Virus record (IMG/VR): IMGVR_UViG_3300032030_000014
Span: 3,919 to 67,918 of that record
Length of the DNA: 64,000 bases
Source of the DNA: a virus
Direction: 5' to 3' (one strand)
Shown here in pieces: positions 24,736 through 25,083 of this stretch (positions are counted from its first letter, which is position 1; each line of letters opens with the position of its first letter). Under the pieces are notes generated by a model. That model made no database searches. It was not told the DNA's origin and saw only the letters and a list, made by a program, of their open reading frames with translations. Position numbers and translations under genes: made by a program.

Positions 24736-24810
24736 GCCGGCGTAGGGTAACGGTAGTTCACCTGGCTCTAACCCAGGAAGTGTTGGTTCGACTCCAAACC
24801 GCCGGTGCCA
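24736..24810 (+). tRNA. amber-suppressor-type tRNA (anticodon CTA, reads UAG); weak 1:72 pair and G73 fit Gln identity
   Basis: Acceptor gccggcg/cgccggt (G1-U72); anticodon arm cctgg-ctCTAac-ccagg is perfect; T-loop ttcgact; G73; CCA. Confidence 0.7.
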
Positions 24811-24815
24811 AAAAT

Positions 24816-24885
24816 AAGACACATTCAGCAAAATATTTAATAATTCGTGCCATTTTTATTTACGAATATATTAAAAAAGTGTCTT
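24816..24885 (+). repeat. stem-loop family member (aagacac-ATTCAGCAA ... gtgtctt)
   Basis: 7-bp stem; AT-rich loop. Confidence 0.55.
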
Positions 24886-24921
24886 GAAGTTTGTTTTTTA
24901 AAAAATTTGTTGAGGATACTA

Positions 24922-24999
24922 AAGACGCACACAGCAAAACATTTACATATATAATCGGAGCTGTTTTGATTTGCCCCTTCAATTGATGTAAAGCGTCTT
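24922..24999 (+). repeat. stem-loop family member (aagacgc-ACACAGCAA ... gcgtctt)
   Basis: 7-bp stem with compensatory base changes relative to the other copies. Confidence 0.55.
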
Positions 25000-25008
25000 G
25001 TTTTATAC

Positions 25009-25083
25009 TGGGGTGTGGTGTAGTGGTTAGCGCCGTGGACTCTAAATCCACAAGTCTGAGTTCGATTCTCAGCGCCCCTGCCA
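25009..25083 (+). tRNA. second amber-suppressor-type tRNA (anticodon CTA)
   Basis: Acceptor tggggtg/cgcccct (U1-U72); D stem gtgt/gcgc; anticodon arm gtgga-ctCTAaa-tccac is perfect; T-arm ctgagttcgattctcag; G73; CCA. Confidence 0.7.

Follow-up and report, generated by a model that had tools for sequence, protein, structure and literature searches.

Amber (TAG) codons are very probably read as glutamine in a subset of the genes of a gut or rumen phage of ~164 kb, and the phage carries two adjacent suppressor tRNA genes with the anticodon CUA that would decode them. The stretch under study, called the window here, is the 64,000 nucleotides at positions 3,919 to 67,918 of IMG/VR virus record IMGVR_UViG_3300032030_000014, and coordinates refer to it unless another locus is named. 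An original prediction from the letters of this sequence had proposed TAG-to-Gln recoding (genetic code 15) with two tRNA-CUA genes, a separate class of genes free of TAG, and late-gene translation timed by suppressor expression. Our analysis supports the core of this reading, namely that TAG encodes Gln, that the phage has two tRNA-CUA genes, that TAA and TGA remain stops and that one class of genes is free of TAG. The joint reading, in which TAG is Gln in part of the gene set by way of the two suppressors, a core of genes excludes TAG and timing depends on the suppressors, is in our judgment very probable.

The gene table was built from plus-strand open reading frames (ORFs) bounded by TAA and TGA; the credible genes are all on that strand, and the long minus-strand ORFs are shadows of plus-strand genes. 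Of the 53 ORFs with 100 amino acids or more, 21 (~40%) have in-frame TAG codons; with the limit lowered to 50 the figure is 32 of 81. The longer set contains 66 TAGs altogether. The earlier count of at least 25 TAG-bearing genes was about right, ~22 of them being independently supported. Genes of at least 100 amino acids terminate in TAA (37) or TGA (16), and the radical SAM gene at 18882-20114 does end in TGA, as had been said of it. Because the standard code (code 11) would fragment 21 of these 53 genes, the window must be read and annotated in code 15.

The frames could instead be pseudogenes, split genes or assembly errors, with the tRNA-CUA genes incidental or non-functional. Naive ORF coverage does little against this idea, since treating TAA as sense gives a coverage of 0.84, nearly the 0.85 obtained with TAG as sense, and we rejected it as a test because AT-rich DNA lets TAA-sense reading raise ORF coverage almost equally. 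In its place we adopted a symmetric test based on homology. Relatives were collected from IMG/VR with a PhoH query (76 loci) and a Thg1 query (80 loci), on contigs of up to 430 kb, and are designated below by L numbers where they must be told apart. The window and 156 related loci were translated three ways, with one stop codon each time treated as unknown, and in-frame stops with conserved alignment on both sides were counted in the best-scoring frame; frames beaten by another frame were removed, as these are off-frame shadow alignments in GC-rich conserved genes. Conserved alignments cross 30 in-frame TAGs, 0 TGAs and 0 TAAs. Read-through is thus confined to TAG, and TAA and TGA remain terminators.

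Individual proteins tell the same story. Pfam's Radical_SAM domain crosses three TAGs in each of two radical SAM genes, PIN_4 (residues 8-126) crosses the PhoH TAG at residue 108, Amidase_2 (residues 21-159) crosses an endolysin TAG at residue 70, and PDDEXK_5 and Pyr_excise domains cross one TAG each. The gene at 61826 has two TAGs between GIY-YIG and NUMOD, the methyltransferase TAG is placed between EPSAGNG and NPPF, and the alignment of UNG with homologues in the PDB continues through the TAG in CPPQDxIF. The domain continuity over TAG that had been noticed in the sequence therefore holds in Pfam matches, methyltransferase motifs and the UNG alignment.

Other evidence points the same way. 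A LigA-like frame stays open for 705 codons at 24% GC, barring 11 TAGs, and TAG sites are common to relatives or are Gln there, including invariant Gln columns that turned into TAG. Over an 11,468-bp tested overlap the window matches a 163,725-bp ENA contig (ERZ27257205, k141_4886592) at 100% identity, and the public gene calls of this contig already treat TAG as sense. The identical sequence or the same genes are also present in other, independent assemblies made from several samples. Megablast of 15.7 kb against 50,697 GenBank phages gave no match. The low Rfam score of one suppressor (38 bits) and its weak D stem speak for a non-functional tRNA, but the tRNAs are conserved with compensatory changes, and we regard pseudogenes, split genes or assembly errors as an extremely improbable explanation. 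A small ORF at 35936-36118, in a block free of TAG, ends in TAG followed immediately by TAA (36113-36118); judged by this arrangement, the TAG may be a stop backed up by TAA.

tRNA genes were called over the whole window with ARAGORN and scored with the Rfam tRNA model RF00005 (gathering score 29 bits). ARAGORN finds 35 tRNA genes, all on the plus strand and spanning 5346-26540. Within this array are suppressor 1 (24736..24810, 38.2 bits) and suppressor 2 (25009..25083, 55.5 bits), 198 nt apart. Both have the anticodon CUA, both are on the plus strand, and they lie exactly where the original prediction had put them. Two independent methods thus call both genes, each above the gathering score, and the anticodon loops claimed for them, CTCTAAC and CTCTAAA, can be read directly in the sequence. 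Suppressor 1 has G1.U72, G73 and an encoded CCA, with a weak D stem and one bulged A in the T stem; suppressor 2 has U1.U72, G2:C71, G3:C70, G10, G73 and an encoded CCA. ARAGORN tags both as 'Pyl', which is simply the tool's default name for CUA.

The suppressors are conserved in place and in structure. Each of the four closest relatives has a tRNA-CUA ~1.2 kb downstream of Thg1, which is also where the window has it, and L079/L159 and L158 share its tandem pair. Orthologues of suppressor 1 in these loci show compensatory changes, with U:A replaced by C:G in the bulged T stem, and those of suppressor 2 (L077, L079 and L158) covary in the acceptor stem from GG:CC to CC:GG. Across 16 Gln, suppressor and Trp tRNAs, 96.7% of cells preserve the cloverleaf, and none of these tRNAs has G:C as its 1:72 pair. 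Directly 3' of suppressor 2, on the plus strand, a consensus scan finds a terminator-like hairpin at 25083..25107 (stem 25083-25099, then TTTTTCT). The Thg1-family tRNA-His guanylyltransferase gene itself, at 23251-24087, is just upstream of the suppressors.

The acceptor stems link each suppressor to one of the phage's own glutamine tRNAs, both of them called by ARAGORN on the plus strand. That of suppressor 1 (GCCGG.../...CCGGU, G73) is the same as in tRNA-Gln(CUG) at 18194-18268, and that of suppressor 2 (xGGGG.../...CCCCU, G73) is the same as in tRNA-Gln(UUG) at 18114-18188; the two isoacceptors probably served the suppressors as parents or as identity templates. The identity set of the E. 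coli glutaminyl-tRNA synthetase (GlnRS), consisting of a weak 1:72 pair, G2:C71, G3:C70, G10, G73 and U35, is all present in suppressor 2, apart from position 36. The T arm of suppressor 2 nearly equals that of the phage tRNA-Trp, to which the whole tRNA is 71% identical, vs 67% to tRNA-Gln(UUG). E. coli tRNA-Trp bearing a CUA anticodon is charged with Gln, and because of this, Gln is predicted for suppressor 2 whether its origin was a Gln or a Trp tRNA. In the phage tRNA-Gln(CUG) the T loop departs from the canonical TTCGAnn and reads GTCAGCA, and this loop is kept in L079.

Two features of the tRNAs weaken the case for Gln. The pairs 2:71 and 3:70 of suppressor 1 are C2:G71 and C3:G70, which departs from the E. 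coli GlnRS set but agrees with the tRNA-Gln(CUG) that the phage itself encodes, as seen in the window, L078 and L079. The weak 1:72 pair and G73, put forward originally as GlnRS features, are indeed present in both suppressors but are not specific to Gln, and they are no proof of Gln identity by themselves because the phage tRNA-Trp and tRNA-Arg share them.

In the protein alignments of some relatives, TAG stands at invariant Gln columns of PhoH, GyrA and GyrB, at positions corresponding to 46198 (Q 70, TAG 4), 46567 (Q 67, TAG 8), 46603 (Q 70, TAG 5), 46654 (Q 66, TAG 9), 52433 (Q 51, TAG 3) and 49934 (Q 31, TAG 2). The window residue facing relatives' TAGs is Gln 142 times, a 10-fold enrichment, followed by Lys with 2-fold. 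Among the window's own TAG sites, those at 18978, 19290, 19749, 30037, 48187 and 59799 have TAG or Gln in relatives. When every site counts equally in the likelihood, Gln is the best residue for the window's own TAG sites by at least 6.6 log-likelihood units at each of three identity filters (35, 50 and 60%). The UNG site, which had been aligned to a Gln of the human protein, has Asp in the five best solved bacterial UNGs and is for this reason uninformative alone; in relatives it is TAG five times and Gln once.

It is very unlikely that TAG encodes another amino acid (pyrrolysine, Trp, Lys or Glu), or that the two suppressors insert different residues. The closer identity of suppressor 2 to tRNA-Trp would favor such a reading, as would Lys being the second commonest residue opposite TAG and a pooled likelihood that places Lys marginally over Gln. 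The pooled likelihood is dominated by the diverged LigA paralogue, and equal site weights give Gln at every cut-off. Moreover, Gln is 10 to 13-fold enriched and is the sole residue at the invariant columns, Trp almost never faces TAG, and a Trp-derived suppressor would be expected from the E. coli case to receive Gln. As for pyrrolysine, the traits of pylT-type tRNAs (a 3-nt variable loop, a small D loop without GG, a 6-bp anticodon stem) are absent from both suppressors. These fold as ordinary cloverleaves whose D loop contains GG, whose variable region is 4 nt long and whose T loop is TTCGA, and no pylS or pylBCD genes were seen among the proteins scanned. A last point for another residue comes from L078 (IMGVR_UViG_3300028048_000053), which has at the same place a 94-nt tRNA-CUA (11272-11365 of that locus) with a long variable arm and G73. 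From its form this tRNA resembles a type II tRNA such as tRNA-Ser, and it could be an intron-containing suppressor or have another identity. In the same locus, ORF coverage also rises when TGA is treated as sense.

TAG is distributed very unevenly among the 53 genes of at least 100 amino acids (chi2 = 153, df 52, p = 6.5e-12). The TAG-free class comprises 32 genes with 268 Gln codons (CAA 117, CAG 151) and zero TAGs, and the TAG-bearing class uses CAA 133, CAG 22 and TAG 66 times. The two classes had been described as segregated, which is true by gene and not by position: a runs test detects no spatial blocks in the window (z = 0.77), and the classes are interleaved except for a TAG-free run of genes of at least 100 amino acids at ~30.8-41.8 kb. 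The genes listed as TAG-free (TROVE-like, MVP, LigA, GyrB and GyrA, RNase H and the RNA-repair block) are so, but a second, LigA-like gene has 11 TAGs.

This partition might reflect composition and gene history instead of timing, with C-to-T drift turning CAG into TAG in AT-rich, weakly constrained or mobile genes, while GC-richer genes that use CAG simply have not accumulated TAG. The share of TAG falls as GC content at third codon positions (GC3) rises (rho = -0.59), which also counts against the joint reading given above, and each of the eight lowest-GC3 genes has TAG. Because TAG share tracks low GC3, composition accounts for part of the pattern. Homing endonucleases, the catalytically dead LigA paralogue and the two putative peptide-maturation cassettes described below are among the TAG-bearing genes, where the TAG:CAG ratio of 3.0 is near the neutral first-position ratio TTG:CTG of 4.2. 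TAG in these genes is thus close to neutral expectation, like a freely synonymous codon, and the visible selection is the exclusion of TAG elsewhere. The lack of spatial clustering also suits drift, as does the nucleotide after TAG (+4), which shows no bias (p = 0.2). The idea that TAG specifically replaces CAG was rejected, as much of the CAG depletion in TAG-bearing genes follows low GC3, and genes of the low-GC3 class compared among themselves differ at no better than p = 0.04. By gene thirds, the TAGs number 32, 20 and 14, a lean to the first third that uncertainty in start codons could explain.

Composition meets its limit in genes that are AT-rich and contain Gln yet are TAG-free, among them LigA, ThyA, RNase H and the gene at 26567. 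At GC3 of 0.23 or below there are six TAG-free genes with 54 Gln codons, and the chance of zero TAGs in them is 1.4e-10. We also scored TAG status by family in 46 recoded relatives, where it is conserved. Families with next to no TAG (members with TAG/total) are Thg1 (0/10), SPFH (0/22), metallophosphatase (0/18) and LigA (0/6), and gyrase comes close (GyrB 2/34, GyrA 5/35), with its TAGs at invariant Gln columns. In PhoH (33/42), UNG (6/6) and the holin-like family next to the endolysin (32/37), TAG is common. Because the TAG-free state is kept per family across dozens of diverged relatives, purifying selection against TAG is needed, and composition and gene history in place of timing have in our view a modest chance of being the explanation. 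The partition suggests that selection acts mainly to keep core genes TAG-free, not to enrich TAG in lysis genes. Recoding itself is patchy: treating TAG as sense raises the coding density of the closest relatives and of about half of the PhoH loci, but not that of the more distant Thg1 loci.

The contrast between families extends to the other Gln codons. SPFH orthologues in 35 relatives use CAA 92, CAG 912 and TAG 0 times, and the holin-like family over relatives uses CAA 105, CAG 6 and TAG 43 times. One could imagine that Gln decoding in this clade is a deliberate three-channel system, in which CAG-only families that ban TAG stand opposite TAG-using families that avoid CAG, though we give this proposal little chance. 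If the phage tRNA-Gln(CUG), tRNA-Gln(UUG) and the two tRNA(CUA) differ in timing or level, sets of genes could be gated by their choice of Gln codon, and such gating, if true, would go beyond a simple model in which TAG blocks late genes.

The reading we prefer can be put as a sequence of proposed steps. The window belongs to a ~164-kb phage genome in code 15, terminated by TAA and TGA, in which TAG would be decoded by two phage suppressor tRNAs (CUA), each with an acceptor end like that of one phage tRNA-Gln isoacceptor. These tRNAs would most likely be charged with Gln by the host's glutamine-charging machinery and would compete with host release factor 1 at UAG. The families that strictly exclude TAG (gyrase, LigA, RNase H, ThyA, Thg1, RNA-repair, TROVE-like, MVP-like and SPFH) would be translatable in an unmodified, standard-code cell, and this conserved class lends indirect support to a host that itself uses the standard code. 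Other genes use TAG about as often as the AT bias of the phage predicts for a Gln codon that is freely synonymous, and, following the published timing model, they would give full-length products only after the suppressors accumulate.

Several observations strain this scheme. In the window, UNG, PhoH, the methyltransferase and a DenV-like glycosylase carry TAG, and in the 9.5 kb beyond it RecJ has 9 TAGs and DnaB 2, while a Phage_lysozyme2 gene there, like the holin-like gene in the window, has none; the PIF1 helicase gene in this flank is also without TAG. No clean line separates early from late genes, and the split is thus not simply one of replication vs lysis. The promoter scan around the suppressors does not exceed shuffled background (15 sites vs 10.4 +/- 3.7), and neither release factor 2 (RF2), GlnRS nor another code-change factor was seen in the ~80 kb examined. 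On the lysis side, 3 TAGs fall in the Amidase_2 endolysin gene, and relatives have many TAGs in their holin-like genes. Structural genes were found neither in the window nor in ~6 kb upstream or 9.5 kb downstream. Because this functional split is imperfect, with TAG-bearing RecJ and DnaB genes and a TAG-free lysozyme-like gene, suppressor timing of late-gene translation is something we infer: it is consistent with the data, and partly strained by them.

The TAG-bearing genes of the window, all on the plus strand, include two similar cassettes that rank among its most TAG-rich genes, each pairing a very Cys-rich protein with CxxC-type repeats and a radical SAM/SPASM-type enzyme. The first (2358..4502) encodes a 255-amino-acid Cys-rich protein (5 TAGs) and the enzyme (8 TAGs), whose Radical_SAM domain (residues 43-210) crosses 3 TAGs; relatives retain TAG at 3270 and 3312. 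The second pair (18882-20819) lies in a TAG-bearing cassette at 18882..23159, with a radical SAM enzyme (8 TAGs, ending in TGA), a 231-amino-acid Cys-rich protein (5 TAGs) and an SLH-domain protein (2 TAGs). By their gene content, the two pairs look like maturation systems for ribosomally synthesized and post-translationally modified peptides. A DNA methyltransferase-like gene with 2 TAGs is at 27164..27934, recognized from its sequence and by PHROG 5172 and 799. At 45535..48774 are PIN-PhoH (1 TAG), the Amidase_2 endolysin (3), a holin-like gene with two transmembrane segments (0, although its family is TAG-rich in relatives) and UNG (1).

The LigA-like paralogue at 54540..56657 (705 codons, 24% GC, 11 TAGs, no CAG) is full-length and lies directly upstream of LigA (56704-58617); the two proteins share 30% identity over 663 columns. 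Where LigA has the adenylation motif CKMDG, the paralogue has IEPEG, so that the catalytic lysine of KxDG is lost, and relatives have the canonical LigA only. Because its frame has been kept open over 705 codons, the paralogue is probably functional as a non-catalytic DNA- or nick-binding protein. Downstream are two GIY-YIG endonuclease genes, at 59283-60272 (5 TAGs; relatives have TAG or Gln at two of them, 59766 and 59799) and 61826-62485 (2 TAGs), with a TAG-free ThyA gene (60582-61364) between them.

The largest mostly TAG-free region, 28044..44619, encodes TROVE-like DUF2828/DUF7788, MVP-like and RlaP-like proteins, metallophosphatases, NADAR, an exonuclease, an RNA-ligase-like protein, AAA_33 kinases and SPFH. 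From 30824 to 41786 no gene of at least 100 amino acids has a TAG, and elsewhere in the region a few genes have one each. Orthologues of its TAG-free genes lack TAG in recoded relatives too. Its GC-rich genes use CAG nearly exclusively for Gln; the DUF2828/DUF7788, MVP-like and SPFH genes have a GC content of 0.49-0.52 in a window of 38% GC. The TROVE-like gene spans 28044-29585, the 815-amino-acid protein with major vault protein repeat and shoulder domains 30824-33271, and the SPFH/flotillin gene 43141-44619. Also TAG-free are the replication genes RNase H, GyrB and GyrA (49074..54514) and LigA.

Some further elements lie near the edge of the window and in the tRNA array. The first ORF (1-1601) is the C-terminal two-thirds of a 731-amino-acid FGE-sulfatase-domain protein that begins upstream (read together with L176 and L177). 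A tRNA at 7824-7902 was called by ARAGORN without a proper anticodon ('gc', isotype ???), scores 43 bits with the Rfam tRNA model and has CGT in the loop region. The window has no other call for tRNA-Thr, and this gene may be an intron-bearing or enlarged-loop tRNA-Thr. A RAGATH-33-like RNA at 7474-7605 scores 116.6 bits, below the gathering score of 120.4 (E = 2.8e-25). A repeated module (copies at 6513-6600 and 6780-6893, matched segments 86% and 94% identical) surrounds a tRNA-like piece at ~6600-6770, and 6585-6873 is 97% identical to L157 889-1177, the remainder of L157 being ~70% identical. Candidates for the identity of the element at 6513-6893 are a conserved non-coding RNA, a tRNA with an intron and a mobile element.

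Code 15 is a system that is already known, and the window is a clear further example of it that opens no new question. TAG-to-Gln recoding in phages was reportedly described by Ivanova in 2014. E. coli amber suppressors offer the simplest parallel: supE is a tRNA-Gln with the anticodon CUA, su7 is a tRNA-Trp with CUA that is charged with Gln, and U35 drives glutaminylation. As in the phage tRNAs, the CUA anticodon is the only essential change in supE and su7, and G73 and a weak 1:72 pair are present. However, supE and su7 are laboratory or host suppressors that differ by a single mutation and give partial read-through, whereas the phage genes are dedicated and conserved and serve at least 66 sense TAG codons in the window alone. 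Code 15 is also used by crAss-like and Lak phages, which share TAG-to-Gln reassignment and the logic of suppressor tRNAs with the window; they are unrelated lineages with Bacteroidetes hosts. The phage of the window instead has SPbeta-like replication proteins (YorF, YorH and YonG_N) and an endolysin whose nearest bacterial homologues are from Oscillospiraceae and Butyricicoccus, and these proteins point to a Firmicutes host. Peters et al. (2022; PMC9523058) show Gln at TAG by liquid chromatography-tandem mass spectrometry metaproteomics in crAss-like phages, and a 2026 survey (PMC13037316) describes code 15 with tRNA-CUA in rumen and gut jumbo phages.

The closest comparison is with the gut and rumen phages of Borges et al. 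(bioRxiv 10.1101/2021.08.26.457843), which use code 15, carry tRNA-CUA and infect Firmicutes, many with genomes of 150-200 kb. Averaged by clade, TAG-bearing genes make up 26% (Sapphire) to 71% (Garnet) of the gene set. Recoding affects lysis genes and homing endonucleases, replication genes are variable and mostly in standard code, and recoding is patchy among relatives. Like the Jade, Sapphire and Agate clades, the window has TAG in a fraction of its genes (40% here), tRNA-CUA, low GC and TAG as Gln, and the identical 163.7-kb ENA contig fits the 150-200 kb range of these clades. The window also has the recoded lysis amidase and homing endonucleases, scattered recoded modules and patchy recoding among relatives. 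Clades in that work were placed by large-terminase phylogeny with at least 95% bootstrap, and no terminase is in the window or the reachable +/-10 kb. The differences are that those clades have one suppressor and here there are two in tandem, that no RF2/aminoacyl-tRNA synthetase 'code-change module' was seen here in the ~80 kb examined, and that here the lysozyme-like and holin-like genes are TAG-free and RecJ is TAG-rich. Three aspects go slightly beyond the papers compared here: the tandem suppressors, each matching one phage Gln isoacceptor, the evidence for a selection that mainly keeps a conserved core TAG-free, and the conserved CAG-only families opposite TAG-using ones. With its SPbeta-like genes, a genome of ~164 kb, tandem suppressors, many relatives and a clade-wide partition of TAG, this is a well-resolved amber-recoded phage of the Firmicutes type.

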